Source: Lewinellaceae bacterium (lineage in GTDB: Bacteria; Bacteroidota; Bacteroidia; Chitinophagales; Saprospiraceae). From it: a stretch of 64,000 bases of DNA. The stretch spans positions 14,880-78,879 of the forward strand of contig CAWIMC010000021.1 in assembly GCA_963837005.1 (NCBI GenBank). The letters run 5' to 3'. Under the pieces are notes generated by a model. The model made no database searches, had not been told where the DNA came from, and saw nothing but the letters and a program-made list of their open reading frames with translations. Positions within the stretch are counted from its first letter, which is position 1. Every line of letters starts with the position of its first letter. Position numbers and translations under genes: made by a program. This document shows, in pieces, positions 1,191 to 15,719 of this stretch.

Positions 1191-1394
1191 CTTGGTCCGC
1201 GCGAATCCACGCGGCCTGTGGGAGTATGGGGGTGCTGGACGCTAGACCCGAGAACCGCTCTCGCCGGAGCCCGGAGCCAGCCTAGTCCCCCGTTCGCGGC
1301 ATGCGGCGAGCGCTCTCAAGGACACGACCTGCGCAGGCCGCGGCGCTACCGGGGCCACGGCCCGGAGCCCGGTGCTCGGTAATCTATCTCGACG

Positions 1395-2165
1395 CTATTG
1401 TCGCGTGATTGACCTCTCGCGTTGGATGTCGGCGCTTGGCATCCGCCGGGTTGCGTCCAGTACCGCCATCCAGTGCTGAACTTCCTGGGTCCTCGATCTA
1501 CTCACGGGGATGATCGCGTCGCGGAGATGGAGTCCGCGCACGCTGATCCGCGTGACCGCCCTCATATCAAAGACGTAGCTGCGGTGGGATTGGACGAAGT
1601 AGTCGGGGAGTTTGGCCTGGAGGACACCGAGGGACTCGCGGAGGTGCAGGACGCGTCCGCCGCGGAGGTGCACCTCGACGTAAACGTGGTCCGCCTTGAG
1701 GTAGGCGATGTCGTCGGCTTCGACCGCGGGATGCTCCGGACCCGCGGGCAGCCACGGCAGGGTGGCTGGCGCCCGGGTTCGACGGTGGTTGTGCAGAGCG
1801 ACCTCGATAGAGGACAGCAGGCTCTCGGTCTGGATTGGCTTGACGAGGTAGCCCAGCGGAGCGGTGGCCTTTGCGCGCGCGAGGTGGGCGGCGTCCGACT
1901 GGGACGTGAGGTAGATGAATGGGATGGGCTGCGGGAGTCCGTTTAGGTAGGCCCCGACGTCTATGCCGGACTCCGGGCTATTGATCCGGATGTCGAGCAA
2001 GGCCAGGTCGGGGTAGTGCTCGAGCGCGAGCGCGGTGGCCTCCCGGTACGAGATCGCCTGGCCGACGACGCGGTGGCCCGCCGCGAGAAGGCTACGCTCG
2101 ATCCCGTCGGCGATCAGGACTTCGTCCTCGACGATGAGAATGGTGCCCGGGGCCTGAGTGATCAA
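1395..2165 (-). CDS. LytTR-family two-component response regulator (receiver + LytTR DNA-binding domain)
   Basis: N-terminal receiver motifs (ILIVEDEVLIADGIERSL, LALLDIRINSPESGIDV). The C-terminal LytTR-like region is ...DIAYLKADHVYVEVHLRGGRVLHLRESLGVLQAKLPDYFVQSHRSYV. Overlaps the downstream kinase gene by 4 nt. Confidence 0.85.
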   Translation of the reverse strand: MITQAPGTILIVEDEVLIADGIERSLLAAGHRVVGQAISYREATALALEHYPDLALLDIRINSPESGIDVGAYLNGLPQPIPFIYLTSQSDAAHLARAKATAPLGYLVKPIQTESLLSSIEVALHNHRRTRAPATLPWLPAGPEHPAVEADDIAYLKADHVYVEVHLRGGRVLHLRESLGVLQAKLPDYFVQSHRSYVFDMRAVTRISVRGLHLRDAIIPVSRSRTQEVQHWMAVLDATRRMPSADIQRERSITRQ

Positions 2166-3967
2166 CTATAGTAGGTTTGCTCGAAGGTGATGTCGGCGTA
2201 GGCCCCGTCCGCGGAGCCGCTCGTAACACTGCCCTGCAACTGGCGTACCATGCTACGGACGAGGTAGTGCCCCAGACCCGTCTCGCGGCGGGTGAACTCG
2301 TTGGATGGGTATCCCGGCCCATTATCGCGATAATTCAACTGGAACCGATCGCCGACCGCCCTTACGGTCACCTCGGCGACCAACTGCTGGTGCGGGGTCC
2401 GCGCGTACTTCGAACTGTTGGTCAGTAGCTCCGTGACGATGATCCCGAGCGGGGTCGCGGTCGAGAGGTTGAGCGCGATTGCGTTGGCCCGCACCGAGTA
2501 GTGCAGTTCGCCGAGACCTTGGGTGAGGGTTTGGTGGTGGCCGCAGATGGCCTCGAGGTAGGCCTGCATATCGACGGCGTGCTTGTCGGTTTGTTGGTAG
2601 AGCACGTCGTGGATCGCGGCCATGCTGTAGATGCGATTGGCCATAGCCTGGAGTTTGTCGTGGACTCCGGCATCCGAGATCGTGTCTCGTTGGAGGGCGA
2701 TGAGCGAGATGACGACCTGGAGGTTGTTCTTGACACGGTGGTGAATCTCGCCCTGGAGGTCTTGCTCGCGCGCGAGGGTCGTCTGCAAGACGCGCGCCCG
2801 TTCCTCGGCGGCGAGCTTGAGGCCCCGGACGCTCCTCGTCGAGCGCCGCAGGAGTAGGTACGCCCGCAGCGTTAGGACGAGCAGTCCCGCAATTAGCGCG
2901 GCGAGTCCCCCGGCCAGCCGAAGGCGCCTGCGCGAGGCATCGAGGGCCTCCGCCTGCTCGGTGAGTTCTGCCTCACGGGCATCGGCCTCGTACCGAGCGT
3001 CAAGGGCCAGGACCTTTTCGTTGGATTCGTCCTGCAACACCTCGAGCTCGGCGGCGTGGGCGAGGACGAGGTAGTGCCATGCGGAGTCCAGCCCGCCGGT
3101 GGCGCGGTAGATCTCGGCGCGGGTTCGGTAGCTAAATGCAAACGGCCACCTCGTCTCGTGCCCGCCGGCGAACGACCTCGTTGCCGCGTAAATGGTGGAG
3201 TCGTTGTACTGCAGGGCCTGGTCGTAGCTCCCAAGTTCGACGTAGTACCCGACCGCTCCCGCGATCATAGCGCCGTAGCCGGTCCAGTCCCCGAGCCGCC
3301 GGAAAACCTTCGCTCCCGCGAGTGCGTGCTCGAGTCGGGCCGAATCGGTGCGGCCCTTGAGCAGCAAACCCATTAGCATATGTCCGACGGCCTCTTCTTC
3401 GTCCTGGCGGTAGAGCGGTGCCGTGCGCAGGACTTCATGCGTGTAGTAGATCGCGGAGTCGCGGTCGGCGAAGATGCGGTGGTAAGAGGCAATCCGGATG
3501 CACCACAGCGGATACAGCGTGTCGAGCGCCGGATACTTTGCCAGCAGCCCGCGAGTATAATCGAGGTTTCTCAGGCAGGGGGCGGGCCTGTCGATCTTCT
3601 CGTAGAGTAGTGCAAGTACAATGGCGGCGTTGGCGGCCACATCCCACACCTGCGTGGCCTCGCTCCGGCTACGGACCCGGAGCAGGGCCGCGAGGGCCGC
3701 ACTGTCGCGCTGGTCCTTCTCGAGGGCATCCGCGCGGCGGAACCGTACGCGGAGGCCGAACGGCGAGTCAAACAATGGCGTAGCCTCGAGTTCGCGCGAT
3801 AGGGCGTCGAGGACGAGGAAGGCGCTGTCGTTCTTGAAGGACACCAGTAGCCTCGCGCCCTGATGGTAGCGGGCTTCCTGGGCGGGCGTGGGACTGGACT
3901 GGGCGTAGGTACCTACGGTCGTCAACAGCACCACGGCTAAGAGACTGAGCGCCTTCGTCGGATACAC
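2162..3967 (-). CDS. Sensor histidine kinase (signal peptide, TPR-like periplasmic region, TM helix, HisKA_2-type H-box, HATPase)
   Basis: Signal peptide MYPTKALSLLAVVLLTTVGTYAQ. TM segment LAGGLAALIAGLLVLTLRAYLLL. H-box EIHHRVKNNLQVVISLIALQ followed by an ATPase domain. Forms an operon with the LytTR regulator. Confidence 0.8.
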   Translation of the reverse strand: MYPTKALSLLAVVLLTTVGTYAQSSPTPAQEARYHQGARLLVSFKNDSAFLVLDALSRELEATPLFDSPFGLRVRFRRADALEKDQRDSAALAALLRVRSRSEATQVWDVAANAAIVLALLYEKIDRPAPCLRNLDYTRGLLAKYPALDTLYPLWCIRIASYHRIFADRDSAIYYTHEVLRTAPLYRQDEEEAVGHMLMGLLLKGRTDSARLEHALAGAKVFRRLGDWTGYGAMIAGAVGYYVELGSYDQALQYNDSTIYAATRSFAGGHETRWPFAFSYRTRAEIYRATGGLDSAWHYLVLAHAAELEVLQDESNEKVLALDARYEADAREAELTEQAEALDASRRRLRLAGGLAALIAGLLVLTLRAYLLLRRSTRSVRGLKLAAEERARVLQTTLAREQDLQGEIHHRVKNNLQVVISLIALQRDTISDAGVHDKLQAMANRIYSMAAIHDVLYQQTDKHAVDMQAYLEAICGHHQTLTQGLGELHYSVRANAIALNLSTATPLGIIVTELLTNSSKYARTPHQQLVAEVTVRAVGDRFQLNYRDNGPGYPSNEFTRRETGLGHYLVRSMVRQLQGSVTSGSADGAYADITFEQTYYS

Positions 3968-4438
3968 AGGTTGTCGTCTAGGGATCGCTTGATGACGCGG
4001 GAAGGTAGGGCGGCTCGGTCGGGCGGGCCTCGCGCCGGTTGGTACTTAGGTGGCTGAGATCAGATCGACGAGCCGGACCGTCCAGGGCTACCCTAGGGAG
4101 CCGCAGTGGAGCGAATATTTAAGGCAATGTTCTGAACGGCAACGGAATTTGTCAACCTACTGATTATCAGTTTATTATCGACTCCGTTTAGAACAAACCT
4201 ATGCGTTTAACCGCCGGAAACTCGGCAGATTCAGGGTAGAAACGGTGTGGGAGGGACCTAACGAAGGCTCTGCAATTTGCTAATCGTAAAAAGCGTGCTA
4301 TGTTTGCTATACGATCTCCAGTCTGGCCTGCCTCGCATCGATCCGTCGGATGGCTTCGCCAGCGCCAGTTTCTTCTCTCCGATTGCCAGACCGTGAAAAA
4401 TAGAACTCGACTACGGCATTGTCTTTTGAAAACCTGAG

Positions 4439-6766
4439 ATGTTTACATTGCCTCTCTCAGTTAAACGACAAGTTTCAAACTACCTCATTAATTTTCTTCG
4501 CAGCATGACTACAGTAATACACCAACACCCGGCCTCTGCTAAAAGCACTATCGAATCTGCCTCGCGCAGCAAGGATGTTCGAAGCAGTCACTTGCATGGA
4601 GTCGTGGGCATCTTGCTCATCCTACTTGCTTTTGCTCCTCTCAATACCCAGGCGCAGGGCGGTCCTAATGACTATCGTGCGGTATTTGCCGTCCCAGCTA
4701 ACGGTAGGGTGATTTTTTCCGTTCAAGTCTCGGAAGAAGTTAGCTCGAAACCCTGTAGCTTTTGTGCATTTAGAGGCAATGTAGACTACGAATTTCAAGA
4801 GCGTCCGAACGGGGCAGTAACCCAAGGTTCGTTTACCAGCCTTGATCCGTTTAATTATAAAACTGTGCAAATCACTGGTTTAACGCCTGGCGGGACGGTC
4901 GCCATTGCGTTTGAAGCGGGAGATCTTGCCAGTATACAAAATGGAGGAACGAACGCATCTTCAATTATTGACGTTGAGCAGTGGGGGACAACGCGGTGGA
5001 AATCAATGTTCTACATGTTCTCGAATGCCACTTTGCTTACCGATTTCACAGCCGTTGATCTTCCGGACTTATCTTTTGGACCAAGTCTGTCCGGCATGTT
5101 TAGAAATGCTGATAACTTCAATGGTGAGATTGCCAATTGGGATGTATCTGCGGTGACGGATTTTAGTGGAACGTTTCAGGGAGCGTCTTCCTTTAATCAA
5201 CCTATAGATAGTTGGGACGTCTCTGCGGCTACTAATTTAGCCTTGATGTTCTTCGGCGCCTCCTCTTTTAACCAGCCTATAGGTAGCTGGAACGTGTCTA
5301 ACGTAACCAACATGAACTCCATGCTGCGAGCAGAAGCCTTCAATCAACCAATCGGTGATTGGGATGTATCGAGTGTGCAGGTTATGAGCGGAATGTTTGC
5401 CGGCGCCTTTGCTTTTAACCAGCCCATAGGCGCCTGGGATGTATCCTCAGTAACCACGATGCGTAATATGTTTGACGCTGCACTTACATTTGATCAGCCT
5501 ATTGGCTCTTGGAATGTTTCCGCCGTAACGAATATGGCCAATATGTTTTCAGTTACTGGTTCATTTAACCAGCCGATTGGAGCTTGGAATGTATCTTCTG
5601 TCACCAATATGGATGCAATTTTTGCTCAGACAGCCAGTTTTAACCAGCCTATTGGCGACTGGGATGTATCTTCCGTGACGAGCATGGTTTCCGCCTTCGC
5701 CTTTGCTCGAGCCTTTGATCAACCGCTCAATGATTGGAATGTGTCCTCCGTAACGGATATGAACTCGATGTTTACCTATGCGCCTGTTTTCAATCAACCC
5801 ATTAATGACTGGGATGTGTCTGCGGTGACAAACATGAACAACATGTTCCTGCTTGCCAATGCATTCAACCAGCCAGTTGGAGATTGGGACGTATCAGCTG
5901 TAACAGTTATGACCGGGATGTTTACAAGTCGGCAAGGTAGCTTCGGAAATTCCCCGCAAACCGCCTTTGATCAGGATCTCTCAGCGTGGGCACCGAGGCT
6001 CAACGCCCAGGTCTCTCTATTTGGTATGCTCGACCTCTCCGGGTTGTCTTGTGCGAACTATTCGTCGCTGCTCGTCGCATTAGCGTCCGCCGCACCAGAC
6101 GGCCGTAACTTAGGAAGAGTTGGAGGGTTAGAGTATGGGACCAATGCACAGGCGGCTCGAGACGTGCTAACAGGTACGAAAGGCTGGTCGCTCTCCGATG
6201 ACATTCCTTCAGGCACAAATTGCCAACCATCTCTACCTGCGGAATTAACTAATTTGTCCGTCTTTCGCAGTGATAGAGAGAATCATATCGCATGGGTCAC
6301 AGCTTCTGAATTGGGCACTGTGCACTTTGATGTGGAGCACAGCTCAGACGGGGTCATCTTCAAGTCTATTGGTCGGGTATTGACCATCGGCCTCGATGGT
6401 GGCGGAGCGACATACGGCTTCGACCACGCTACAGCTAGTTCTGGCACACATTATTATCGTCTACGTATCGTGGATGGGGACGGTTTTCAGGATTTGTCCG
6501 ACGTGGTTGCCGTCACTGTGAATAATGGGATCGAAGCTACTCTCGCCATATACCCCAATCCTACTGCCGCCGGTGATGTAGTACACATATTGGGTGCCAA
6601 CGTTGGGGTGCCCGTTGTTATCCTCGACGCGACAGGGCGTCTCGTGTGGCGCGGAATAACCGAGTCCAATGGCGAACTTAGTGGTCTCGAGACCCTTTCT
6701 CAGGGGTACTATCTGATGCGAGTTGAGATCGAGTCCCCAATCGTTTTGCCATTCGTTCAGAATTAG
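4439..6766 (+). CDS. BspA-family leucine-rich-repeat (DUF285-type) surface protein with T9SS C-terminal sorting domain
   Basis: About 11 tandem 25-aa repeats of consensus FNQPIGxW(D/N)VSxVTxMxxMF, the DUF285/BspA LRR type. The C-terminus ...YPNPTAAGDVVHILGANVGVPVVILDATGRLVWRG...GYYLMRVEIESPIV is a typical Por_Secre_tail. Local GC is clearly below the window average. The true start may be at 4505. Confidence 0.8.
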   Translation: MFTLPLSVKRQVSNYLINFLRSMTTVIHQHPASAKSTIESASRSKDVRSSHLHGVVGILLILLAFAPLNTQAQGGPNDYRAVFAVPANGRVIFSVQVSEEVSSKPCSFCAFRGNVDYEFQERPNGAVTQGSFTSLDPFNYKTVQITGLTPGGTVAIAFEAGDLASIQNGGTNASSIIDVEQWGTTRWKSMFYMFSNATLLTDFTAVDLPDLSFGPSLSGMFRNADNFNGEIANWDVSAVTDFSGTFQGASSFNQPIDSWDVSAATNLALMFFGASSFNQPIGSWNVSNVTNMNSMLRAEAFNQPIGDWDVSSVQVMSGMFAGAFAFNQPIGAWDVSSVTTMRNMFDAALTFDQPIGSWNVSAVTNMANMFSVTGSFNQPIGAWNVSSVTNMDAIFAQTASFNQPIGDWDVSSVTSMVSAFAFARAFDQPLNDWNVSSVTDMNSMFTYAPVFNQPINDWDVSAVTNMNNMFLLANAFNQPVGDWDVSAVTVMTGMFTSRQGSFGNSPQTAFDQDLSAWAPRLNAQVSLFGMLDLSGLSCANYSSLLVALASAAPDGRNLGRVGGLEYGTNAQAARDVLTGTKGWSLSDDIPSGTNCQPSLPAELTNLSVFRSDRENHIAWVTASELGTVHFDVEHSSDGVIFKSIGRVLTIGLDGGGATYGFDHATASSGTHYYRLRIVDGDGFQDLSDVVAVTVNNGIEATLAIYPNPTAAGDVVHILGANVGVPVVILDATGRLVWRGITESNGELSGLETLSQGYYLMRVEIESPIVLPFVQN
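5120..5940 (+). repeat. Intragenic tandem array, about 11 x 75 bp (25-aa LRR units)
   Basis: Units begin at about 5197, 5271, 5343, 5418, 5493, 5568, 5643 and 5718. Each begins TTTAACCAGCC(T/G)AT(A/T)GG... Confidence 0.8.
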
Positions 6767-6992
6767 CGCTCGGCGTGCACGAGGTTTAAGGGCCATTTTA
6801 AGTTCTTTGAGCCTCGCGACCTTCGGCCACAGGAAGTTTACTACACGACTCTCGGGTTTTCTTACAAAGTCCATCTACCCGGATGTTGCTTTTCATTCGT
6901 TACTTCTCAAAGTGTGTAGGCATCTGTTGTAACTGTTCAGTACTTCTGCGAGCTAATCTAGCCTAATGCAGTAGTGCATCCGCCCCACACCG

Positions 6993-7597
6993 CTATACAT
7001 TGAGTAAATAAATTGACCTAAATCCGGACATCACTCTTCGGATTATCGTGACCAGGTAGCGGGCGAAAGTGACGAGGTCCACGGTGAACTCCCTCATTCG
7101 GTCGGCGCCGTGCCGCAACGCGGAAGCAGCTTTGTAGACGCGTTTATCTGAACCGTGGGGCTTCATCGGTCTGGCCGTCGCGTGGGTGGCTGACCCTTCG
7201 ATCACCGACCAGATGTAGGCGAATACGACCACCGCGATCAGCAAGTGTCGGCGCTCGGGATCGCCGAGGTTGACGAATTTGAGCTCGAATCCGTTGAACT
7301 TGAGATGCTTGAAGTAGTGCTCGATCTTCCACCGCAGCAGGTACCGCTCGACGGTCGCGTAGGGGCTCTCGTCGAGGGTCGTGATCAGGAGCATCACGCG
7401 CGCCTTGGCCCTTGCCGTCGGGTGGGGGTTGCGCGCGATCACGTACCAGAGCAGCGGGCCGTCGGCGTCGAAGCGGAACGCGAAGCGCTTGGCGCGGTTG
7501 GGCTTGCCGCTCGATTCGACGCTCCGGATCGCCTCGCGCAAGCGGGGTTGACCCGGGCCGGAGGCGTCGACGAAGCTGAAGTGGGCATAGTCGCGAG
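6993..7597 (-). pseudogene. IS4-family (DDE_Tnp_1) transposase, C-terminal portion, split by the IS66 insertion
   Basis: Reads ...RDYAHFSFVDASGPGQPRL...YLLRWKIEHYFKHLKFNGFELKFVNL... The YxxRWxIExxFKxLK block is typical of IS4/IS5 DDE transposases. The reading frame continues across the 8-bp target duplication into 10050-10154. Confidence 0.75.
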
Positions 7598-7656
7598 GTA
7601 AGCGTCTAAGCAACCCCGTCTTGTGAGAGATCTTCGGTGCGCCAAGCTTCACCGGC

Positions 7657-7947
7657 ATGGCAAACCTATCCCACCTCCCCGATCTCTGGCGCCAAAGCGG
7701 CCTATCGCAGCGTGAGTTTTGCGAACGGCAAAACGTCAAACTCGCCACCTTCTCGTACTGGCGCAAGAAACAAATCGACGCCGGTGCCCCTGCGGCAACC
7801 CCAGCCGTGGCATCTCGGACAGCCGGCTTCGCCGAGCTGCACGTCGCCTCCCCCGCGCATGGTGCAACCCCGCCGTCGAACGCAGATCGCGCCATCGAGA
7901 TCACCTTCCCCGACGGCACCCGCGTGAGCATCCCGATGCCCGCCTAA
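7657..7947 (+). CDS. tnpA: IS66 accessory protein TnpA (orf1, HTH)
   Basis: 96 aa: MANLSHLPDLWRQSGLSQREFCERQNVKLATFSYWRKK... First ORF inside the IS66 inverted repeats. Confidence 0.7.
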   Translation: MANLSHLPDLWRQSGLSQREFCERQNVKLATFSYWRKKQIDAGAPAATPAVASRTAGFAELHVASPAHGATPPSNADRAIEITFPDGTRVSIPMPA

Positions 7948-8336
7948 TGCTCGCGCTCTCGCCCCACGTCAAGCTCTACCTCTACGGCGAGCCGTGCGAC
8001 ATGCGCAAGGGCTTCGATGGACTCAGTGGCGTGGTCCGCGCGGCCCTCGGCCGCGAGCCCGACGACGGCGCGGTGTACGTGTTCGTCAACCGTAGGCGCG
8101 ACTAGCTCCCAAGCGGGGCCCCATCCCCATTTGGTCGCAAGCTCCTGACCTGGGAGCCGGAGGGCTTCTCGATCTACTACAAGCGCCTCGAGCGCGGGAC
8201 CCTCGAGCTGCCGAGAACCTCGGTCGACCACGCACACTTAACCATCACCCCCGAGACGCTCGCGCTCATGATCGCGGGCATAAAACTGGAGCGCGTGGAG
8301 CGTCGAGAACGCTACCGGAATGTGCAAAGAACCTAG
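7947..8336 (+). pseudogene. tnpB: IS66 Orf2 / TnpB with an in-frame TAG at 8103-8105
   Basis: MLALSPHVKLYLYGEPCDMRKGFDGLSGVVRAALGREPDDGAVYVFVNRRRD*LPSGAPSPFGRKLLTWEPEGFSIYYKRLERGTLELP... matches the IS66 Orf2 consensus (DMRkgfdgL...FvFxNrRrD.lKiLyWd..Gf.l.yKRLE.G.F.wP). The two halves are in one frame, separated by an amber codon and about 11 extra residues. Confidence 0.7.
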
Positions 8337-8391
8337 CGTTTACTGATGTTTCGGCTAGGTTGAGAGGCATCGATTCCGTACCTTAGTCGCC

Positions 8392-10041
8392 ATGATCCCC
8401 GAAGCACAACACCTGGCCGTCGTCGCCGCGAAGGATGCCGAGATCGCGGCCCTCACCGAGCGCTTGGACGCCCTCGCCGAACAGCTCAGCAAACTCACGC
8501 GCGCCCTGTTCGGTCGCTCCACGGAGCAGCGCTCCGGCGCGGTTAATCTCGACGAGCAACAACTCGGCTTGTTCGGGACCATGCTCCCCGAATCGCCTGC
8601 GGACGTCGAGGACAAGGTCGTGCGGTCACCCAAATCGACCGCTCGCGCACCTCACCCAGGCCGGGCGGCCATCCCGGCACACCTTCCGCGCCGCGTGGAG
8701 GTCATCGACCCGGAGGGCGTCGAGCGCCAGATTACTGAGCAGGGTGGGATTACCTACCCGGGCCACGCGATCCTCGGTACCGAGGTCTCCAAGCGCATCG
8801 TGCTCCTCCCCCAGCAGCTCTACGTGCTGGAGACCCATCGCCCGAAACTGCTGCGCGACTGCACCGACGTGATCGCGGTGGCCGAGTTGCCGGATCGCGT
8901 GATGGCCAAGTCCGTGGCCGACGAGACCCTCGTGGCCGACCTGATCATCAAGAAGTTCGTCGAGCACCTCCCGCTCTACCGCCAGGCCGAGGCCTTCAGG
9001 CGCGACTACGCCTGGGAGGTGTCCCGCGCCACGCTCGGCAACTGGATCGAGCGCGCGGCCACCGCCCTGCGGCCCCTGCGCGACGAGCTGCGGCGCCAGG
9101 TGCTGGCCTCGGGATACATCCAGATGGACGAGTCTGGCATCCTCGTGCTGGCCGACCCAGAGGCGAATGCCGACGGCGGCAAGTCCACGCAGCCCAAACC
9201 CAAATCGCACAAATCGAAGAGCGGCGGTCCGCCCGGCAAAGACGCCCGCCGGCACCAGGGGTACATGTGGCTGGCGCGCGACCCGGTGAGTAAGATGGTC
9301 TCGTTCGAATACAGCAAGGGGCGCGGCCACAGTCTGCCGAAGGAACTGCTCGAAGATTATACTGGCTACCTGCAAGTAGACGGCTGGGGTGCCTACCGCA
9401 CGGCGCTGGCGAAGCTGCACCCGGTGGCCGAGGGCGTGGCTATCGGGCAGACCGAGGAGCAGCCGATCCAGCTGGTCGGCTGCGGGATCCACGTGCGGCG
9501 AAAGTTCTTCGACGCGCAGCTGTCGTTCGCCCGGGCGGCCCACGAGGCGCTCGAGATGTTTAGGCGCATGTACGTCGTGGAGGCGGCGTGCCGGCACATG
9601 ACGCCAGCGGCGCGACTGGCCTATCGCCTGGAGCACCTGGCGCCGGTGATGACCGAGTTCGGGGCGTGGATCGAGCAGTACCGCCACCGGGTGAAGCCGA
9701 AGACCGGGCTCGGCAAGGCGGTGACGTACGCGCTCAATCAGTGGCCGTTGATGCAGGCGGTGCTTAAGGACGGGCGGGTGGAGTTGGACAATAACGGCAT
9801 CGAGAACGAGGTGAGGCGCCTGGCGCTGGGGCGCAACAATTATATGTTCGCGGGGTCACACGGCGGGGCGCAGAATATTGCGGTGCTGTATAGCCTACTG
9901 GCTACGTGTAAGGCGTGCGGGGTCAACGAGCGGGACTGGCTGAACGATGTGCTCAAGCGACTCATGAGCCATCCGATTAAGCGGATCGCGGAGTTGCTGC
10001 CTAATCAGTGGAAGCCACTTGGGCAAAACGGGGTTGCTTAG
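8392..10041 (+). CDS. tnpC: IS66-family transposase TnpC (DDE)
   Basis: 549 aa with a leucine-zipper-like N-terminus, the LFGRSTEQ motif, ...HLPLYRQAE... and the C-terminal block DNNGIENEVRRLALGRNNYMFAGSHGGAQNIAVLYSLLATCKACGVNERDWLNDVL. Confidence 0.9.
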   Translation: MIPEAQHLAVVAAKDAEIAALTERLDALAEQLSKLTRALFGRSTEQRSGAVNLDEQQLGLFGTMLPESPADVEDKVVRSPKSTARAPHPGRAAIPAHLPRRVEVIDPEGVERQITEQGGITYPGHAILGTEVSKRIVLLPQQLYVLETHRPKLLRDCTDVIAVAELPDRVMAKSVADETLVADLIIKKFVEHLPLYRQAEAFRRDYAWEVSRATLGNWIERAATALRPLRDELRRQVLASGYIQMDESGILVLADPEANADGGKSTQPKPKSHKSKSGGPPGKDARRHQGYMWLARDPVSKMVSFEYSKGRGHSLPKELLEDYTGYLQVDGWGAYRTALAKLHPVAEGVAIGQTEEQPIQLVGCGIHVRRKFFDAQLSFARAAHEALEMFRRMYVVEAACRHMTPAARLAYRLEHLAPVMTEFGAWIEQYRHRVKPKTGLGKAVTYALNQWPLMQAVLKDGRVELDNNGIENEVRRLALGRNNYMFAGSHGGAQNIAVLYSLLATCKACGVNERDWLNDVLKRLMSHPIKRIAELLPNQWKPLGQNGVA

Positions 10042-10049
10042 ACGCTTAC

Positions 10050-10154
10050 GTCGCGAGACCGGATGACGAAGCCTAAACCCTTGAGCGACAGGTACTCTAG
10101 CCACTCCCGGCCGATGTACTCGCCGTCGAGCGATGCCGTGAGGCGATTGCGACC
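10050..10154 (-). pseudogene. IS4-family transposase fragment (first catalytic-D region), continuous with 6993-7597 once IS66 and one TSD copy are removed
   Basis: Encodes ...LTASLDGEYIGREWLEYLSLKGLGFVIRSRD, which fits the IS4 ADREfIG..W...L...GI.FVIR motif. Joining across the duplication gives ...FVIRSRDYAHFSFVD..., matching the start of the 6993-7597 fragment. The rest of track ORF 10038..10640 is antisense junk. Confidence 0.65.
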
Positions 10155-10937
10155 CCGCTCGGGGTCGAGCTCTCCGGCGGGACCGTCGACGCCGTCGAGG
10201 CCATCCGCGAGCACATTGCCGGGGCGGCGGTCGTCGGCGGGGACGAGACCACGGTCCGCATCGACGGCGCGAACGCCTACATCTGGGGGTTCCAGACCCC
10301 GCACGCGGCGCTGCTCCACGTCGGCCCCGGGCGCCACGGCTCGGTGGTCGAGGACTTGTTCGCCGGCGGGTTCCCGGACGCGACCTACGTCTCGGACCGG
10401 TACGCCGGCCAACTCCGGATCGCGAGCGCCCGCAAGCAGCTGTGCGCCCCGCACCTGATGCGCACGTCCAAGGGGCTCGCCGCCGCCGCAGGCGACGCGT
10501 TCTGGGCGCTGTCGCTGCTGGACGTGTTGTCGGACGTCTCGCGCCACGGAGCCCTCGGGCGCGTGGCCGCGCCGGCCGAGCGCCGCCGGATCAGACGCGA
10601 ACTGAAGTGGCTCGTCGAACCGAAGTGGTTCGACAGACACGGAGGATTAAGCGCCGAGGCTCAGGCGCTGCGCCGCAGTCTCGGCAAGCGCTACCGACAG
10701 TTGCTCACGTGCCTGCGGCGCGCCGATGTCCCGCCGGACAACAGTGCGAGCGAGCGGTTGCTGCGCATCGTAAAGGTCAAGTGCGAGGTCTCGGGCGGGT
10801 TCCGCAGCGAGGCCGGGGTCCGCGTGTACTGCAAGGTGCGCTCGGTGATCGAGACGGCGATCCGCCTCGGGGTCGATGTCCTCGAAGCCCTCAAGACCCC
10901 CGGTATCCTGATACCGCAGCTGGCGATAGCTGAATAG
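10140..10937 (+). pseudogene. Second, N-terminally truncated IS66-family transposase (TnpC) copy, divergent from the first
   Basis: The frame through 10344..10937 reads ...VDAVEAIREHIAGAAVVGGDETTVRIDGANAYIWGFQTPHAALLHVGPGRHG...PHLMRTSKGL...PPDNSASERLLRIVKVKCEVSGGFRSEAGVRVYCKVRSVIETAIRLGVDVLEALK. These are the IS66 transposase middle and C-terminal blocks. There is a stop at 10098-10100 and no N-terminal third. Confidence 0.6.
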
Positions 10938-11437
10938 TTTTATGGTCGCGTGTCTGCGGCGGAGCGGAAGCGGTTCGGTCGCTTAACTTAGTCCCTCGCT
11001 CACGAGCGGTCCTGTAGTGCTCGATATCGCGCTGCCTGACTACGGGGAGGTGCAAAGTAGCTTGCTCAACGTCCAGGGCCAACTATTATAAGCTGGCACC
11101 TGCTCGGTCACAAGCGCTACCACGAGATGATTACGTTGCCGGCGACCGGTCGGTACTTCGTGCACGTGCGGCATGCACTCGGCGACGAGGTGTTGCGGGC
11201 GGTGGTGGCGGAGTAAGGCGGGGTGGTGGTAAAGTGTGGTCCTCGGGTGAGTCGGCGTTGCGGGGACTCAAGGACGCGGGGCTGCTGAGCCCGCTGACCA
11301 CCAAAGCGCTGAGGGGCGCGAGAACAATAAGACGCAAGAGTAAACGAGACGTACGCGATGGTAGACTGTAGCTAAGTCCTTCGCGATCTGCGTTTCTCCC
11401 TCCGTGCGCCTCGTGCGCCTCGAGTCCCAGATGGCCG

Positions 11438-12655
11438 CTACCAAAGCCGCACAGCCGGCCGCACGATGGCGGTCACAAAATTCTGCGTTACCTCAAACTC
11501 GATGGGCGGATTCCCATTCGCGGCACAGAGGCTCCGCGCGTAGCTGATACCGGTACCGAAACGCTGCACGAGCTCGAGGACCTTCATGGCCTCGGCCAAA
11601 GTAGGATTGCGGTAGGCGGCCAGACCGGGTTGGCCGAAGTTGTCGACGTTGACCTCGCCGTAGGGTCCGCCGGGGCTCCTGATCTCGATCCGGTCGTCGT
11701 ACCAGTACACGTGTATGGGTGTGTTCGACGGTCCGTACCGTCGGTGCATGACGGCGTTGCGCAACAGTTCCTTCAGCGCGGCGAGCGGGTAAAGACTGAA
11801 CCTGCGCTCCAGCGGGGTTGTCCCGTAGTCGACTTCGGTCGTGCAGAAGCCTTGGAGTTTGCTATCGATCGACCGGATGGCCTCAGCGATGTCACCCTTG
11901 CCTTCAAGGGCGTCGATCTTGGGGTCGGACAGATCGATACCTTTTATCCGTAGCCACTGGATGTAGGCCCCTGGGATGTGCCAGGTGGCATCGTCTACGA
12001 GCGCCAGGCACCCGGCGACAGTCGCCTGCACGGGTGTCGTCGTCGTGATTAACCGCAAGGCGCTAAGCCGCTGCTCGTAGGTACGTTCGTTGGCGGCGAG
12101 GACATCCTCGGCGAAGGCCGCGGGTAGGTACACGTATTCGAAGCGGCGCTTGTTGATTGCGTCGACCCCCGCCGTCGGTACCGGATGTGCATCGTCCGGG
12201 AAATTACGGAACCGGAAGCGCTCGCTCAGGATACGCTCGTCTTGTGCGGTCGCGATGTCGCGGCGCGGACCCGTCCGGACGTGGATTCGCTTGTCGTAAC
12301 GCACCGGCGGGGAGTCCGACGGCTCTACCGCGACAAGGGCATACTGAAAACTGTCTAGTACGCGGCGCTCCACGTACATCGACGGCGGCGGAACGATGTT
12401 GCCGTCGGTGCGCATCTCGTTGAGCTGGAGAAGCAACAGATCATCGACCGAGATCCCCGACGGTGAGCCGTCGTCACGGGCACCGACGATCAGGACGCCC
12501 GCCCGACCGGTGCCCGTTAGGTCGTTCGCGAATGCACAGACCGTCTCCCGGGCCTTCGGGGCAACGGGTCGCGTCCAAGCCGCCTTGAATTCGACGCGAT
12601 CCGACTCGCCGCCTTCGAGCAAGTCCCGTAGTTCGCCATCGGTATAGCGCGTCAC
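11438..12655 (-). CDS. AlbA_2 (divergent AAA/Schlafen-like) + HATPase_c_4 domain ATP-binding protein (putative transcriptional regulator; RecG C-terminal-like)
   Basis: The real N-terminus is probably the GTG at 12653-12655, which overlaps the thrS stop as GTGA. It reads (M)[26 protein letters not shown]...[30 protein letters not shown]... The C-terminus is ...[33 protein letters not shown]... The first 160 or so residues of track ORF 11438..13141 are overprinted on thrS. A paralog lies at 43471..44703. Confidence 0.75.
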
Positions 12656-14652
12656 GTGTCCTCCGTTTTGGCGAAAGCCGCCGCCCCAAACGTTTTGGCG
12701 AAAGCCGCAATCTCCATCTTGCCCACGTCCCCTTCGCCCTTCTTGCGCACGCTCACCGTTTTGGCGGCAGCCTCCTCCTCGCCCACGATGAGCATGTAGG
12801 GCACCTTGCGCATCTCCGCATCGCGGATCTTGCGGCCGATCGTCTCCGAGCGCTCGTCGACCTCGCCAATGATATCGGCCTTCGCCAAAACCCGCTGCAC
12901 CTCCCGCGCATACTCGTTGAAGCGATCCGCCACCGGGATGACGGCAAACTGCTCCGGCGCGAGCCACAGCGGGAAGTTGCCGCCCGTGTGCTCGATGAGG
13001 ATCGACGTAAAGCGCTCCAGCGAGCCGAAGGGCGCGCGGTGGATCATCACGGGGCGGTGCGGCTGATTGTCGGCCCCGATGTACTCGAGTTCGAAGCGCT
13101 TCGGGAGGTTGTAGTCCACCTGCACGGTGCCGAGCTGCCACTGGCGCTTGAGGGCGTCGCGGACCATGAAGTCGAGCTTCGGCCCGTAGAAGGCCGCCTC
13201 CCCGTAGGCCGTCACCGTCGTGATGTCGATCGAGGCACAGGCGTCGATGATGGCCTTCTCGGCGCTCGCCCAGTCCTCGTCGGAACCGATGTATTTCTCG
13301 GGCTTGGCCGGGTCGCGCAAGGAGATCTGCGCGGTGACATCGTCAAAGCCGATCATGTGCAACACCTCCTGCGTGAGCGCCACGACTTCCAGGAACTCCT
13401 TCTGGACCTGCTCCGGCGTACAGAAGATGTGCGCGTCGTCCTGCGTGAAACCCCGCACGCGACTCAAACCGTGGAGCTCGCCCGACTGCTCGTAGCGGTA
13501 CACCGTCCCGAACTCCGCGAAGCGCACCGGCAGCTCCTTGTAGCTGCGGGGCCGGAACTTGTACATTTCGCAGTGGTGCGGGCAGTTCATCGGCTTGAGC
13601 AAAAACTCTTCGTCCTCGCGGGGGGTCTTGATGGGCTGGAAGGAGTCCTCGCCGTACTTGGCGTAGTGGCCGGACGTGACGTAGAGTTCCTTCTTGCCGA
13701 TGTGCGGCGTGGTCACCTGCTGGTAGCCCATGTCCGCCTGGCGCTCCTTGAGGTAGTTGATGAGGCGCTCGCGGAGTTGCGTGCCGCGCGGCAGCCACAT
13801 CGGCAAGCCGGCGCCGACCTTCTCGGAGAACATGAACAGTTCCAGCTCCTGGCCGAGTTTGCGGTGGTCGCGGAGCTTGGCTTGCTCGAGCAGTTCGAGG
13901 TGCTCTTTGAGCTCGGAGGCCTTCGGGAAGCTGACGCCATAGATGCGGGTGAGCTGGTCGCGCGACTCGTCGCCGCGCCAGTAGGCCCCGCCGGTCTTCA
14001 TGATCTTGACGGCCTTGATGGCGGCGGTATTGACGAGGTGCGGCCCGCGGCACAGGTCGGTGAAGTTGCCTTGCTTGTAGAAGGTGATCGAGCCGTCCTC
14101 CAGGTCGCGGATCAGTTCCAGTTTGTACTCGTCACCTTTCTCGGTGAAGTACGCCAGCGCGTCGGCCTTCGAGACATCGGTGCGGACGAAGTCCGACTTA
14201 GCGCGCGCCAGTTCGATCATCTTGTCCTCCACAGCCTTAAAGTCCTCGGTCGAGAAGCTGCGGTCGGGTCCGAGGTCCACGTCGTAGTAGAAGCCCCCGT
14301 CGACGGCCGGTCCGATGCCGAGTTTGACGCCGGGGTAAAGGGCCTCGAGGGCTTCCGCCAAAACGTGCGCCGAGGAGTGCCAGAAGGTCTGCTTCCCTTC
14401 GGGGTCGCGCCAGGTGAGGAGCTGGACGGTGGCGTCATCGCGGATGGGCCGGTTCGTCTCCACGACTTTGCCGTTGACCTTGGCCGACAGCACGTTGCGC
14501 GCCAGCCCGGCCGAGATGTCGGTGGCGACGTCGAGGGCGGTGGCCCCGGCGGGGTAGGGCTTCTGGGTCCCGTCGGGCAGGGTGATGGTGATCTGGCGGA
14601 CGTCGGCGGCTACGGAGGACATGAGGTGAGGGATTTGGGCGCCTTTCGGCAA
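12652..14652 (-). CDS. thrS: Threonine--tRNA ligase
   Basis: Full-length class II ThrS: TGS/second-additional domain ...[23 protein letters not shown]..., editing-domain [10 protein letters not shown], class II catalytic motifs and an anticodon-binding domain. The start is probably the M at 14622 ([10 protein letters not shown]...). The C-terminal tail ...[21 protein letters not shown] is encoded by two tandem copies of the dispersed 15-mer. Confidence 0.95.
12666..12679 (-). repeat. Dispersed 15-mer, exact copy (1 of a tandem pair, with 12693-12706)
   Basis: ttttggcgaaagcc on the + strand. It encodes AFAKT at the thrS C-terminus. Confidence 0.8.
12693..12706 (-). repeat. Dispersed 15-mer, exact copy (2 of the tandem pair)
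   Basis: ttttggcgaaagcc, 27 bp from the previous copy and in the same orientation. Confidence 0.8.
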
Positions 14653-14757
14653 AACTGGGGGCGAAGGTAGGGTGGGGGCGGGGGTGGCGAACCTAGGAGC
14701 TCTTAACCCGGATGCCTGGATTTTTTAACTCCTACAAACAGTTCTGTTGGGTATCTG

Positions 14758-15336
14758 TCAAGTCCAGCCGCCTTCGAGTTCAGCCGCGAACTGGGCGCAG
14801 CCGTTGAGCCGCAATCGATCTAGCAAGTGAGTTTTTGACCAAGGTGGACGCTGCTTCCTCGCTCTCAGGTAGTCCATTGCTGTATTACTAATGGTCGCGT
14901 TGGTGCGGTACATATCCGTCAAGACGGCATCTGGCGTGAGGGCTTCGATGCCCAGCTGAGCCAGTAGCTCAGACGGGAAGTCTCGCAAGTTATTGGTGAC
15001 AATGATGTCTGCCTGTCCTTGGTGTGCATCATCAAGCACCTGTATATCTTTTGGGTCCGGTAATACAATTCCTGTAGGGTTCGATTTCTCGCTGGAGATA
15101 GAACAACTATATCTAGGATACTGGCCAAGGGCGAAGGTTTTCATCGCTTCGAACCTCGAGCGTATCCCTGCCTCGAGATGATGATTTGCCTCTTTCGCCA
15201 GTAGCGACCGCTGTGCTTCCTCGACGACGTAGGTGGACCAACAGACCTGGATGAGTCCGAACTGGTGGCAAGTGAGAAAGGTGTCCGTCATCAAGACAGG
15301 GTAGAGGACATTTGCGTCCAAGAATACCTTCTTCAC
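14758..15336 (-). CDS. PIN-domain protein (VapC-like toxin of a type II TA pair)
   Basis: MKKVFLDANVLYPVLMTDTFL... with acidic residues spaced as in PIN nucleases (D7, E, D...D). Lower-GC islet. Immediately downstream of a small HTH gene. Confidence 0.65.
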   Translation of the reverse strand: MKKVFLDANVLYPVLMTDTFLTCHQFGLIQVCWSTYVVEEAQRSLLAKEANHHLEAGIRSRFEAMKTFALGQYPRYSCSISSEKSNPTGIVLPDPKDIQVLDDAHQGQADIIVTNNLRDFPSELLAQLGIEALTPDAVLTDMYRTNATISNTAMDYLRARKQRPPWSKTHLLDRLRLNGCAQFAAELEGGWT

Positions 15337-15347
15337 GCTACGACGAC

Positions 15348-15719
15348 TTAGAGGCCAGTGCCACCGTCGATGACGGCGTGAAGTGCGCGGAACTGGTGTT
15401 CGACTTTTGCGGCATCCGAGAGCGCAATTTCGTAGCCTGAAGACTTGAAGATTGCCGGGAGGCGGTCCACGCGGATCAAGTGAAGGACTGCATCAACGGG
15501 AAGTTTCAGTCTTTGAGCCAACTCTTCTGGTGACAAGAATCCGGGCTCTTCGACCACCCTAAAATCCCTGCCCGCCGCCACCATCCTGAGGATAGGTGCT
15601 AACACTTTGCGCAGGCTCTCGCTGAGCGGCCCCTTGTCCGTCGCAAGACGCTCCAGGTCCGCGCGGTCCTCGGGCGAGAGGTCGGACGCTTTGATGGTGT
15701 CGTGGGTGAGCGTTTTCAT
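15348..15719 (-). CDS. Helix-turn-helix (excisionase/MerR-like HTH_17) DNA-binding protein, putative antitoxin partner of the PIN protein
   Basis: ...LSPEELAQRLKLPVDAVLHLIRVDRLPAIFKSSGYEIALSDA... 12-bp gap to the PIN gene on the same strand. Confidence 0.55.
   Translation of the reverse strand: MKTLTHDTIKASDLSPEDRADLERLATDKGPLSESLRKVLAPILRMVAAGRDFRVVEEPGFLSPEELAQRLKLPVDAVLHLIRVDRLPAIFKSSGYEIALSDAAKVEHQFRALHAVIDGGTGL

Follow-up and report, generated by a model that had tools for sequence, protein, structure and literature searches.

The threonine--tRNA ligase (ThrS) of a Lewinellaceae bacterium ends in two copies of the tetrapeptide FAKT, shortly before a four-nucleotide overlap with the next gene. 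The locus raises the question of whether this repeated tail is a feature of the protein, a device of the operon junction, or the by-product of a signal carried by the DNA. It was analysed within a 64-kb stretch of one contig (referred to here as the window), together with about 170 kb of sequence from relatives. The favoured answer, to which a probability of about 0.7 is assigned, is that both FAKT 15-mers are unexceptional copies of a DNA word found throughout the genomes of one clade. This word accumulates by point substitution, rather than by insertion, where the protein tolerates change; it would be read as a hairpin in single-stranded DNA; and its genome-wide excess would be kept by a process that favours word-bearing DNA.

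The double FAKT tail and the abundance of the word

The thrS reading frame stays open as far as a TTG at 14652, but a database protein (P0001) that is 100% identical to the window ThrS over 656 aa places the start at the ATG given in Table 1. The protein contains TGS, tRNA_SAD, tRNA-synt_2b, and HGTP_anticodon domains, and its AF2 model has a mean pLDDT of 80.5. On the minus strand, the gene ends aag atg gag att gcg gct ttc gcc aaa acg ttt ggg gcg gcg gct ttc gcc aaa acg gag gac acG TGA cgc gct. The first-pass annotation had described both FAKT peptides as encoded by exact DNA copies 27 nt apart, and the sequence and coordinates were verified: GTTTTGGCGAAAGCC occurs twice, with TTTTGGCGAAAGCC matching the plus strand exactly at 12666-12679 and 12693-12706, and the identity between the copies stretches to 18 nt (CGTTTTGGCGAAAGCCGC, at 12664-12681 and 12691-12708). 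Copy 1 falls within the helix that ends the anticodon-binding domain (helix 638-649 in the AF2 model; pLDDT ~84 for residues 641-650), where ortholog comparison showed F641 to be invariant and F645 nearly so. Copy 2 sits in the variable C-terminal tail and ends 10 nt before the stop/start overlap; residues 651-656 were modelled with a pLDDT of 42.

Table 1. Positions of thrS, its word copies, and neighbouring features in the window
Feature	Position	Strand	Remarks
thrS (threonine--tRNA ligase)	12652..14622	-	656 aa from ATG at 14622
Word copy 1, GTTTTGGCGAAAGCC	12692..12706	+	antisense to thrS; encodes A640-F641-A642-K643-T644
Word copy 2, GTTTTGGCGAAAGCC	12665..12679	+	antisense to thrS; encodes A649-F650-A651-K652-T653
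Hypervariable ThrS tail after conserved F645 (11 residues + stop)	12652..12690	-	
Word copy, GGCA loop, GTTTTGGCGGCAGCC	12758..12772	+	antisense; encodes E-AAAKT in thrS
Word copy, one mismatch, GTTTTGGCGAAGGCC	12877..12891	-	sense; encodes VLAKA in thrS
Word copy, GTTTTGGCGGAAGCC	14350..14364	-	sense; encodes VLAEA in conserved SAH-LMAEALE motif of thrS
Word variant, compensated stem, GTTTTGCCGAAAGGC	14641..14655	-	18 nt upstream of thrS ATG
Downstream gene, SLFN_AlbA_2 + HATPase_c_4	11438..12655	-	405 aa; zero word copies
GTGA overlap	12652..12655	-	thrS stop TGA 12654-12652; downstream start GTG 12655-12653
Word-free zone, 11.5 kb, adjoining thrS	1192..12664	.	largest gap, 11,488 nt vs mean 1,451

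The word is far more frequent than chance would allow. The window contains 32 matches with at most one mismatch, compared with 0.03 expected, and 43-49 word copies in all, interspersed on the two strands (+ 24 / - 25). Counted on both strands, the density is ~0.7 per kb across the window and about ten related Saprospiraceae genomes, ranging from 0.34 to 0.87 per kb in the window, L001-L004, and L081-L084, with 0.17 per kb in L085; a single match was found in 76 other Bacteroidota loci totalling 1.38 Mb. The word persists in genomes of 47-70% GC and has dialects, with GCT replacing GCC in L002 and L003, and NTTTT in L035.

Approximately 70% of the copies are genic (32 sense, 28 antisense, and 25 intergenic). 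Two reading frames hold 37 of the 60 genic copies (sense frame 0, n = 18; antisense frame 2, n = 19), and these favoured frames encode VLAxA in the sense and AxAKT in the antisense orientation. In the window genes, all eight AxAKT peptides and 12 of 13 VLAxA peptides are spelled by the word, through codons that are rare here (GTT, 8% of Val; TTG, 12% of Leu; AAA, 25% of Lys; GCT, 10% of Ala). Copies are also concentrated towards gene 3′ ends, with 22 of the 60 in the last fifth (P = 0.002).

Spacing between words is over-dispersed (mean 1451 nt for 43 words, CV 1.36). The largest gap adjoins thrS and contains the AlbA_2 gene, an IS66 transposase and IS66 fragment, and a histidine kinase/LytTR pair (Pfam assignments); in the small sample available, one transposase gene carries a word, in L082. 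From the 43 words and their spacing, our own arithmetic predicts that a window should hold ~0.8 neighbouring pairs no more than 27 nt apart, so that, given this density, a pair as close as the one in thrS is not surprising. Pairs closer than 100 nt are mildly enriched across the clade (17 vs 8.4 expected, P = 0.004), although four of the 17 represent the same orthologous thrS pair.

Descent of the thrS sites and of the operon junction

A codon alignment of 13 thrS genes was used to trace the copies. Copy 1 is present as the exact word, at the same codons, in L001, L081, L083, and L004, and in one-mismatch versions in L082 and L084; being common to at least five relatives, it is not specific to the window genome. 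Outgroup proteins have EFVxFF where the window has AFAKTF, and copy 1 thus changed three residues of the last ThrS helix while both packing phenylalanines were kept. AFAKT is conserved at this site in seven close orthologs, and L085 retains the peptide with different codons, which indicates that selection on the protein now also acts at copy 1. Conservation of synonymous sites there is only modestly unusual, with four identical codons in a run where 41% of codon columns are identical. Copy 2 is exact in the window only. At the same codons, L084 reads gag gct tcc gcc aaa tcg, which differs from the GGAA-loop form by a single mismatch, and the other relatives have unrelated sequence. The residues that follow the conserved AFAKT(F) number 2 to 20 among relatives, without conserved sequence, and 4 (KEQL-type) in word-free outgroups. 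Copy 1 is therefore an old site common to relatives, and copy 2 lies in a fast-evolving tail that spans the distance from the end of the ThrS fold to the stop/start overlap. The earlier suggestion that the motifs had replaced the native tail, rather than been inserted, holds for copy 1, which substituted terminal-helix residues, but not for copy 2, which belongs to a clade-specific extension of variable length.

The first-pass annotation had also proposed that a DNA-level word, not a conserved peptide, dictates the tail, and had asked for an ortholog alignment. The alignment bears this out: the tail is clade-specific, FAKT is absent from all of the more than 100 ThrS orthologs from word-free genomes, which end ...EEFVAFFKEQL, and no motif-free genome was found with the same peptide. 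By itself, the double FAKT tail is a harmless by-product of the genome-wide word.

Further copies, which the first-pass annotation omitted, lie in and near thrS (12758-12772, 12877-12891, and 14350-14364, plus 14641-14655 upstream). The first has orthologous copies in L001, L081, L082, L084, L085, and L003, and outgroups have EAESGQ or EVENGQ there. At the second, an ancestral Q/E-L-A-K-H became V-L-A-K-A in a word-bearing subclade. At the third, the outgroups and half of the clade have HLMAEAL (ctc atg gcc gag gcc), and the window, L001, and L082 have HVLAEAL (gtt ttg gcg gaa gcc). The upstream variant is found at the same place in L001, L081, and L082. No indels were found at the four internal thrS word sites in the codon alignment and, together with the changes LM to VL, QLAKH to VLAKA, and EFVxFF to AFAKTF, this indicates that the words originated by substitution. 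The claim that the word is tolerated even within an essential gene agrees with several copies having rewritten thrS residues, including the conserved HLMAEAL to HVLAEAL. The gene offers a clean local demonstration that a DNA-level word can dictate what residues an essential housekeeping enzyme carries, with two of the changes falling in a conserved motif.

The GTG start of the downstream gene had been called plausible and is real: it yields 405 aa, as in two orthologs, and places the beginning of the AlbA_2 domain at residue 17 (match over residues 17-132, starting at profile position 1, E 3.7e-14; HATPase_c_4, E 4.8e-18). Four orthologs of 405-406 aa, 55-73% identical, were examined and carry no words. 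The reported 4-nt overlap can be read directly in the window and is conserved in three further genomes, as GTGA in L083 and as ATGA in L001 and L081; in L084, ..CCGTGA.. persists in frame, 15 nt beyond a TAG stop of more recent origin. Judged from this distribution, the stop/start overlap is ancestral and older than copy 2. The conserved overlap would give co-transcription and coupling by termination-reinitiation. However, the word pair cannot be tied to this junction, as had been supposed: L001, L081, and L083 keep the overlap without copy 2, which shows that the word is not needed for coupling. The junction resembles other ATGA/GTGA coupled operon pairs in its conserved 4-nt overlap (four genomes) and differs in joining a housekeeping synthetase to a fast-evolving AlbA_2/HATPase_c_4 gene; otherwise it is ordinary.

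It is accordingly quite improbable that the pair was placed at the junction to aid downstream expression, through the A-rich CAAAAC and the GGAGG just ahead of the GTG, or through mRNA structure. The GTG does stand 10 nt from the end of copy 2 and is preceded, at 4 nt, by GGAGG, but the three relatives that share the overlap have unrelated upstream sequence and lack GGAGG, folding of the junction mRNA is no stronger than in shuffled sequences (z = -1.1), and Shine-Dalgarno pairing is little used in Bacteroidota. Less probable still is a FAKT repeat that serves ThrS, for instance as a tail motif contacting tRNA or a partner, with the DNA word incidental. The persistence of AFAKT at copy 1 in close orthologs, and its other spelling in L085, would fit such a role; against it stand the absence of FAKT from every word-free-genome ortholog, the presence of the same peptide, always word-spelled, in unrelated window proteins, the use of rare codons, and the position of copy 2, which is missing in the closest relatives and sits in the low-confidence tail. 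A recent local tandem duplication, by replication slippage of a 27-nt unit or gene conversion from copy 1, has a better but still low chance of having produced copy 2, and would not conflict with the main explanation. The 18-nt perfect identity takes in three flanking bases, close direct word pairs are enriched, and the metagenome contigs L302 and L308 have 22-26-nt tandem arrays with a unit containing the word, which indicates that local amplification occurs. The other 9 nt of the 27-nt units, however, are unrelated (tttggggcg vs gaggacacg, 3/9 identical), and the shared flanks (C before, GC after) are the bases that most often border the word and suit the Ala codons in this frame. The diverged word-like copy of L084, with the same codons and 27-nt spacing, indicates that copy 2 either is older than the species or arose twice at a predisposed EAAS-AK sequence.

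Hairpin structure of the word

The word can be written 5'-GTTTT-NNC-GNNA-GNN-3', with GTTTTGGCGAAAGCC as the commonest form: a T-tract, then a stem of 3 bp whose C-G pair closes a four-base GNNA loop. It had been regarded as a plain string, a view that does not hold, since the stem positions covary as in a hairpin. Among 140 unselected instances of GTTTT-N3-GNAA-N3, the middle stem pair was Watson-Crick in 137 (G-C 100, C-G 29, A-T 8), whereas shuffles averaged 78.8 and never exceeded 95. The outer pair was Watson-Crick in 98 (shuffled mean 74, max 87) and G-T in a further 21, the closing C-G was present in 130, and nearly all loops were GNNA. The wobbles are strand-asymmetric: 19 are G-T on the GTTTT strand, and only three would be wobbles on the opposite strand. 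An intrinsic terminator was considered and rejected, given that the T-run precedes the hairpin, the stem has 3 bp, and most copies lie inside ORFs.

Nearest-neighbour DNA parameters gave the hairpin only -2.6 kcal/mol. The loops observed (GAAA, GGAA, GCAA, GTAA, GACA, and GGCA) are stable loop variants of d(GCGNNAGC), with Tm values of 71-76 C (PMC13037366). With its stability taken from these published related oligonucleotides, the word matches the exceptionally stable type of single-stranded DNA mini-hairpin represented by d(GCGAAAGC)/d(GCGNNAGC) of Hirao and co-workers. It shares with them the C-GNNA-G core and two G-C (or C-C/G-G) pairs, and its loop preference, GAAA > GGAA > GCAA > GTAA, GACA, agrees with the published stable variants. 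It differs in the obligatory 5' GTTTT and in distribution, in that the natural mini-hairpins known so far occur singly, at origins and promoters of phages or plasmids, whereas the word is genome-wide, with thousands of copies expected, and mostly genic.

Maintenance of the word and comparison with known systems

The process that maintains the word is tentatively taken to be a recognition of self DNA like that served by the uptake sequences of Pasteurellaceae and Neisseriaceae, a preference argued by analogy. Nearly as likely, though also doubtful, is a cis-acting single-stranded signal for the cell's own replication or repair (primase or primosome entry, an SSB-excluding hairpin, or a Chi-like nuclease stop), selected copy by copy and not by transmission bias. 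Such a signal would be consistent with the covarying hairpin, the strand-asymmetric wobbles, a density near one per 1-2 kb, and the fact that the identical CGGCGAAAGCCG has been studied at the phage G4 primase site and binds SSB poorly (PMC13037366). The lack of strand polarity and the over-dispersed, irregular spacing in the window argue against it, and avoidance of the IS66/AlbA_2 zone is not obviously expected of it; a strand skew of the Chi/KOPS type is not seen locally, + and - copies being interspersed throughout the 64 kb. An action in RNA, as a GNRA tetraloop hairpin after a U-rich sequence, for example a processing or binding site, is very improbable. As RNA, too, C(GNRA)G makes a stable tetraloop, and the GTTTT strand tolerates G-U wobbles, but gene orientation is unbiased, and GACA and GGCA loops occur, which are stable in DNA mini-hairpins and are not GNRA. 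It is equally hard to credit a mobile origin, in which a RAYT/IS200-type transposase spread the word as a miniature or REP-like element and inserted it into thrS. A hairpin with a conserved 5' flank does recall REP elements with their GTAG flank, and relative L082 has a Y1_Tnp gene; the internal thrS sites, however, arose without indels, some 70% of copies are genic, the stem has only 3 bp, the repeat beside the Y1_Tnp gene of L082 is a different and longer one, and a Y1 homolog is absent from the window. REP/RAYT systems share with the word a hairpin, a short conserved 5' flank, and many copies, but REPs are extragenic, longer (20-40 nt), and linked to Y1 transposases, whereas the word is mainly genic, 15 nt long, and substitution-born.

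A broader proposal has somewhat less than even odds: that a Saprospiraceae clade carries a previously undescribed kind of genome-wide signal, in which a T-tract precedes a 3-bp GNNA mini-hairpin that is read in single-stranded DNA and permits only compensating stem changes. The pressure behind it, be it a bias in uptake or recombination or a function in replication or repair, would be strong enough to overwrite conserved residues of essential enzymes and to produce peptide repeats like the double FAKT tail. A literature search found no uptake sequence described in Bacteroidota, and no competence genes were seen in the 64-kb window, which at such length says little. If confirmed genome-wide, the word would provide a tractable new system for the origin of genome-wide words and their readers, and the availability of sequenced word-bearing and word-free sister genera makes a comparative genomics search for the reader protein possible.

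Among known repeated words, HIP1 (the highly iterated palindrome GCGATCGC of cyanobacteria) is very abundant, mostly genic, and shapes codon and peptide usage, with a debated function. The present word is likewise abundant, short, mostly inside genes, and affects codon and peptide usage, but HIP1 is a true palindrome of fixed sequence, whereas the word is asymmetric (T-tract plus loop), with a stem that varies with compensation. Known uptake sequences are recognised as double-stranded DNA, and we know of none with internal covariation; the stem positions of the word do covary, implying a hairpin. In ThrS, moreover, the word replaced residues of a highly conserved motif. In other respects it behaves like the USS of Pasteurellaceae and the DUS of Neisseriaceae, being short, at approximately one per 1-2 kb on both strands, clade-restricted with dialects, substitution-born, frame-biased so that certain peptides are inflated, most frequent at poorly conserved positions and gene termini, and, in the small sample covered, scarce in an IS-rich region (PMC2817400, PMC2346458, PMC3630211). 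Uptake sequences themselves show reading-frame bias, and doubled tripeptide frequencies, tend to lie where conservation is low and at the ends of genes, and are absent from genes that lack homologs in relatives (PMC2817400; PMC2346458). The analogy extends to population-genetic behaviour and not to a demonstrated mechanism: in evolution the word acts as uptake sequences do in Haemophilus and Neisseria, in another phylum and with base-pair covariation that points to a hairpin in single-stranded DNA as the form recognised.

Word copies in thrS and at its junction with the AlbA_2 gene

The minus strand across the junction reads ...aag atg gag att gcg gct ttc gcc aaa acg ttt ggg gcg gcg gct ttc gcc aaa acg gag gac acGTGAcgc gct ata ccg..., where the end of thrS (domains TGS, tRNA_SAD, class II core and anticodon-binding; ATG start at 14622, as in a 100% identical 656-aa database protein) carries two exact copies of TTTTGGCGAAAGCC, and the thrS stop TGA overlaps the GTG of the downstream SLFN_AlbA_2 gene. 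The first-pass annotation had described two FAKT-coding copies and this GTGA overlap, and every descriptive statement in it was found to be correct when the sequence, ORF and word matches were rechecked. Each copy belongs to a 15-mer word, d(GTTTTGGCGAAAGCC) in oligonucleotide form.

A codon alignment of 13 thrS genes, from clade members and outgroups, revealed five coding word sites and one upstream, scattered unevenly through the clade and missing in the outgroups. No indels accompany the four internal sites. At the conserved SAH motif, outgroup SAH-LMAEALE (ctc atg gcc gag gcc) is replaced by gtt ttg gcg gaa gcc in the window and in two word-bearing relatives (loci L001 and L082). Elsewhere, outgroup Q/E-L-A-K-H becomes V-L-A-K-A in a word-bearing subclade, E-A-E-S-G-Q becomes E-A-A-A-K-T in several clade members, and, in the terminal helix, E-E-F-V-x-F-F becomes x-A-F-A-K-T-F in most of them. 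This last site, copy 1, matches the word perfectly in the window, L001, L081, L083, and L004, and with a single mismatch in L082 and L084. The 12-kb locus of L085 is poor in words, with two copies (0.17 per kb), and there copy 1 has degenerated through synonymous changes alone (gcg ttt gcg aaa act) and retains the peptide. An AlphaFold2 model of ThrS, built with 61 homologs, placed copy 1 in the final helix (residues 638-649, pLDDT ~84), where F641 is invariant and F645 nearly so; the word spares exactly these two phenylalanines. Word-free orthologs have four residues after F645 (KEQL-type); in clade members, 2 to 20 residues of unrelated sequence follow the conserved AFAKT(F).

Copy 2 encodes tail residues 649-653, with pLDDT falling to 42 at 651-656, and is exact in the window alone. 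At the same codons L084 reads gag gct tcc gcc aaa tcg, which is one mismatch away from the GGAA-loop form and runs on into a similar gag-ac..; copy 2 therefore either predates this species and was lost in L001, L081, and L082, or arose twice from EAAS-AK-like sequence. It may instead stem from a 27-nt slippage duplication: word-containing units GTTTTGGCGTAAGCC and GTTTTGGCGCAAGCC do form three-unit tandem arrays (period 26 and 22 nt) in two JGI metagenome contigs of 58-63% GC, but the similarity between copies 1 and 2 is limited to 18 identical nucleotides, CGTTTTGGCGAAAGCCGC, that is, the word and its preferred flanks. The double-copy tail gave 0 matches in JGI metagenomes, where direct word pairs 5-35 nt apart were found in 7 contigs, comprising 5 unrelated 21-nt protein repeats (organisms of 40-43% GC) and the 2 short word-unit arrays. 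The double FAKT records two word events, or one event and a local duplication, at the point where thrS is most tolerant. A stem-compensated variant, GTTTTGCCGAAAGGC, lies 17-18 nt upstream of the thrS start in four genomes (loop GTAA in L082) and is a conserved non-coding copy.

The ORF opened by the GTG is 405 aa long, with SLFN_AlbA_2 from residue 17 (profile position 1) and HATPase_c_4. The 4-nt overlap recurs at the orthologous junctions of L081 (ATGA), L083 (GTGA), and L001 (ATGA), whose AlbA_2 proteins are 405-406 aa, and L084 keeps an in-frame CCGTGA 15 nt beyond a newer TAG stop. Because the overlap is shared and the AlbA_2 N-termini align (MTQLTDQDLREIL...), the overlap is ancestral and the GTG start well supported; translational coupling of the two genes would be a reasonable inference from it. 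The four genomes have unrelated sequence immediately 5′ of the AlbA_2 start, the GGAGG of the window is unconserved, and the junction mRNA of the window folds no better than shuffles. AlbA_2 genes evolve faster than thrS (55-73% vs 80-92% identity) and hold zero words in any genome compared. Of the earlier interpretation, the GTG start and a peptide dictated by a DNA-level word were upheld, whereas the link of the word pair to an operon junction is coincidental, the pair being no part of the coupling. A second paralog with both domains offers no parallel junction, as it starts ~55 nt past the stop of its amidohydrolase neighbour, with no overlap; downstream of it lie 5-6 tandem units of 23 nt (CAGCGGTCCATCAGCGCAGC...).

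A predicted, covarying mini-hairpin at the DNA level

In the window, the 14-mer with at most one mismatch has 32 matches in 64 kb, against 0.03 expected, and the core GTTTTGGCG occurs 34 times, 17 per strand, nearly always followed by NAAGCC. All GTTTT-N3-GNAA-N3 sequences in clade loci (n=140, triplets unconstrained) were collected for covariation analysis. Complementarity of the triplet pairs was far above chance (GGC/GCC 56, GCC/GGC 18, GGC/GCT 16, GAC/GTC 5, CGC/GCG 5, TGC/GCA 3, plus others). Three types of Watson-Crick pair occupied the middle position in 137 of the 140 (shuffles: mean 79, maximum 95), the outer pair was Watson-Crick or G-T in 119, and the closing pair was C-G in 130. 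There were 19 G-T wobbles as read on the GTTTT strand; read on the opposite strand, 3 instances would be wobbles. With the loop left free, GAAA (61), GGAA (27), GCAA (15), GTAA (9), GGCA (4), and GACA (4) were found, and with the hairpin fixed, the 5′ flank was GTTTT in 90 of 105. Since the copies lie at unrelated loci and originate by point substitution, the covariation was not inherited from a common ancestral copy. These comparisons demonstrate that the word forms, or is selected for its ability to form, a predicted hairpin on the GTTTT strand. The sequence type C-GNNA-G with two G-C-type pairs is the "extraordinarily stable mini-hairpin" of single-stranded DNA (PMC13037366). The loop and stem spectrum of the word coincides with that of the variants published as stable, which have GAAA, GBAA, or GABA loops, GC/GC or CC/GG stems, and Tm 65-76 C; one such sequence, CGGCGAAAGCCG, binds SSB poorly and is located at the phage G4 primase site (PMC13037366). 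Standard nearest-neighbour parameters, which miss mini-hairpin stability, gave an uninformative -2.6 kcal/mol for the word.

Across the window (GC3-based gene calls) and five related loci (supplied calls), the copies divide into 32 sense, 28 antisense, and 25 intergenic ones, a spread that makes an RNA-level role unlikely; some "intergenic" copies sit in uncalled genes, such as that at 32977, which falls within an esterase (segment GDSAGG...VLAKA). Sense frame 0 (V-L-A-x-A) and antisense frame 2 (A-x-A-K-T) prevail, with 18 and 19 copies. The word spells 12 of 13 VLAxA and 8 of 8 AxAKT peptides in window genes, the lone exception lying in the word-free zone, and uses codons that are rare there (GTT 8% of Val, TTG 12% of Leu, AAA 25% of Lys, GCT 10% of Ala); the peptides therefore owe their existence to the word and not vice versa. 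Of 60 genic copies, 22 lie in the final fifth of their gene, an enrichment (P = 0.002). The word is a DNA-level feature under directional pressure, which enters tolerant positions by substitution and alters protein sequence.

Distribution and genomic surroundings

ThrS homologs place the host among uncultured Saprospiraceae, near yet outside Neolewinella/Lewinella. The ten nearest genomes, whose ThrS proteins share 79-92% identity and whose GC content spans 47-70%, have 0.17-0.87 words per kb at their thrS loci, and 76 loci (1.38 Mb) of Neolewinella, Lewinella, Pedobacter, and others gave a single match. L002 and L003 prefer a dialect in ...GCT. Saprospiraceae MAG-53 (46% GC, ThrS 69% identical) has 9 copies in 22 kb of the dialect NTTTTGGCGNAAGCC, in which the first base varies (NTTTT replaces GTTTT), whereas the Neolewinella loci, closer by ThrS (~75% identical), lack it, which gives a patchy distribution. 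IMG/VR scans with the three commonest variants returned 72, 84, and 60 single matches, which is chance level and no evidence of word-rich phages. Only one of the 216 viral contigs fetched (IMGVR_UViG_3300009415_000016, 7.5 kb) holds three copies; it may derive from a phage or prophage whose host bears the word.

The AlbA_2 gene of the window opens an 11.5-kb stretch that has no word copy, against a mean spacing of 1.45 kb elsewhere, carries IS66 copies, and may be acquired DNA. Directly upstream of thrS, a PIN_3 toxin-like gene and a small ORF look like a toxin-antitoxin pair. A cassette of an AAA_15/AAA_21 ATPase and DUF4276 lies downstream of thrS in L082 and upstream in L081. The thrS 3′ flank is a variable region, and the neighbourhood a hotspot of variable genes, possibly defence-related. 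The aspS gene is split in two frames ~40 nt downstream of a word copy (EAFAKT), which could be an assembly indel or a genuine frameshift.

Coordinates of features in the window and in related loci or contigs
Feature	Locus	Position	Strand
Word-free zone	window	1192-12664	
Histidine kinase/LytTR regulator pair (in word-free zone)	window	1395-4045	
IS66 transposase, intact (in word-free zone)	window	8392-10041	
IS66 fragment (in word-free zone)	window	10101-10937	
AlbA_2 gene	window	11438-12655	-
thrS ORF	window	12652-14652	-
thrS stop TGA	window	12654-12652	-
AlbA_2 start GTG	window	12655-12653	-
Exact motif, copy 2	window	12666-12679	
Exact motif, copy 1	window	12693-12706	
Upstream word variant	window	14641-14655	-
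Upstream word variant	L001	9969	
Upstream word variant	L081	9967	
Upstream word variant	L082	9969	
PIN_3 gene	window	14758-15336	-
Small ORF (no Pfam hit)	window	15348-15719	-
Second AlbA_2 paralog	window	43471-44703	+
23-nt tandem repeat	window	44837-44975	
aspS	window	54614-56507	-
aspS C-terminal part	window	54614-55306	
aspS N-terminal part	window	55176-56507	
aspS frame change (near)	window	55195-55235	
Word copy in aspS	window	55252-55266	
thrS/AlbA_2 overlap (gene calls)	L081	11959/11962	
thrS/AlbA_2 overlap (gene calls)	L083	10523/10526	
ATPase/DUF4276 cassette	L081	8141-9936	
ATPase/DUF4276 cassette	L082	11985-13759	
Y1_Tnp gene and flanks	L082	16700-17700	
REP-like similarity	L002	~11935-12080	
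Word copies	L131 (viral contig)	881, 3903, 4452	
Word-unit array (JGI)	L302	8-48	
Word-unit array (JGI)	L308	187-223	

Maintenance of the word and comparison with known systems

The directional pressure would come, on the reading we place first, from a self-DNA recognition signal with transmission bias, to which we give by analogy a probability of roughly 0.35. The covariation is foreign to known uptake sequences and points to recognition of single-stranded DNA, so that a cis-acting replication or repair signal is nearly as likely; against such a signal, the word has no polarity, its + and - copies being interspersed in the window, and its spacing there is irregular (CV 1.36). GC skew in the window tracks gene orientation and gave no replication direction.

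Readings of the word as a REP/RAYT element, a terminator, an RNA-level signal, or a Chi/KOPS-type signal each break down on a feature that defines the class. For REP/RAYT, a tblastn search of the window and close loci with the Y1_Tnp protein of L082 recovered nothing but the query. The RAYT-like gene encoding it is flanked by a separate REP-like family (..gcgttagcgcgcgtcgcccccggtaggcc..), distinct from the 15-mer word, and L002 has a similar sequence immediately downstream of thrS.

The literature search returned no description of the exact word, nothing on uptake-type words in Bacteroidota, and nothing on a genome-wide word defined by a covarying mini-hairpin. Already known are coding-region uptake sequences that shape proteomes, stable GNNA mini-hairpins as isolated sites, and 4-nt overlaps, which are commonplace. 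The ThrS tail that two word copies produced is a modest case, for the most part accounted for; interest rests mainly on the nature of the word and on the evidence that it overwrote conserved positions of an essential enzyme. Uptake sequences in coding regions occur on both strands, with frame bias, inflated peptides, and a preference for tolerant or terminal positions (PMC2817400; PMC2346458). The word shares these traits with the uptake sequences of Haemophilus and Neisseria, as well as dialects and, possibly, scarcity in a mobile-element-rich stretch, but differs from them in its covariation; the phenomenon behind the tail is a variation on known kinds of genome word, and may be more.
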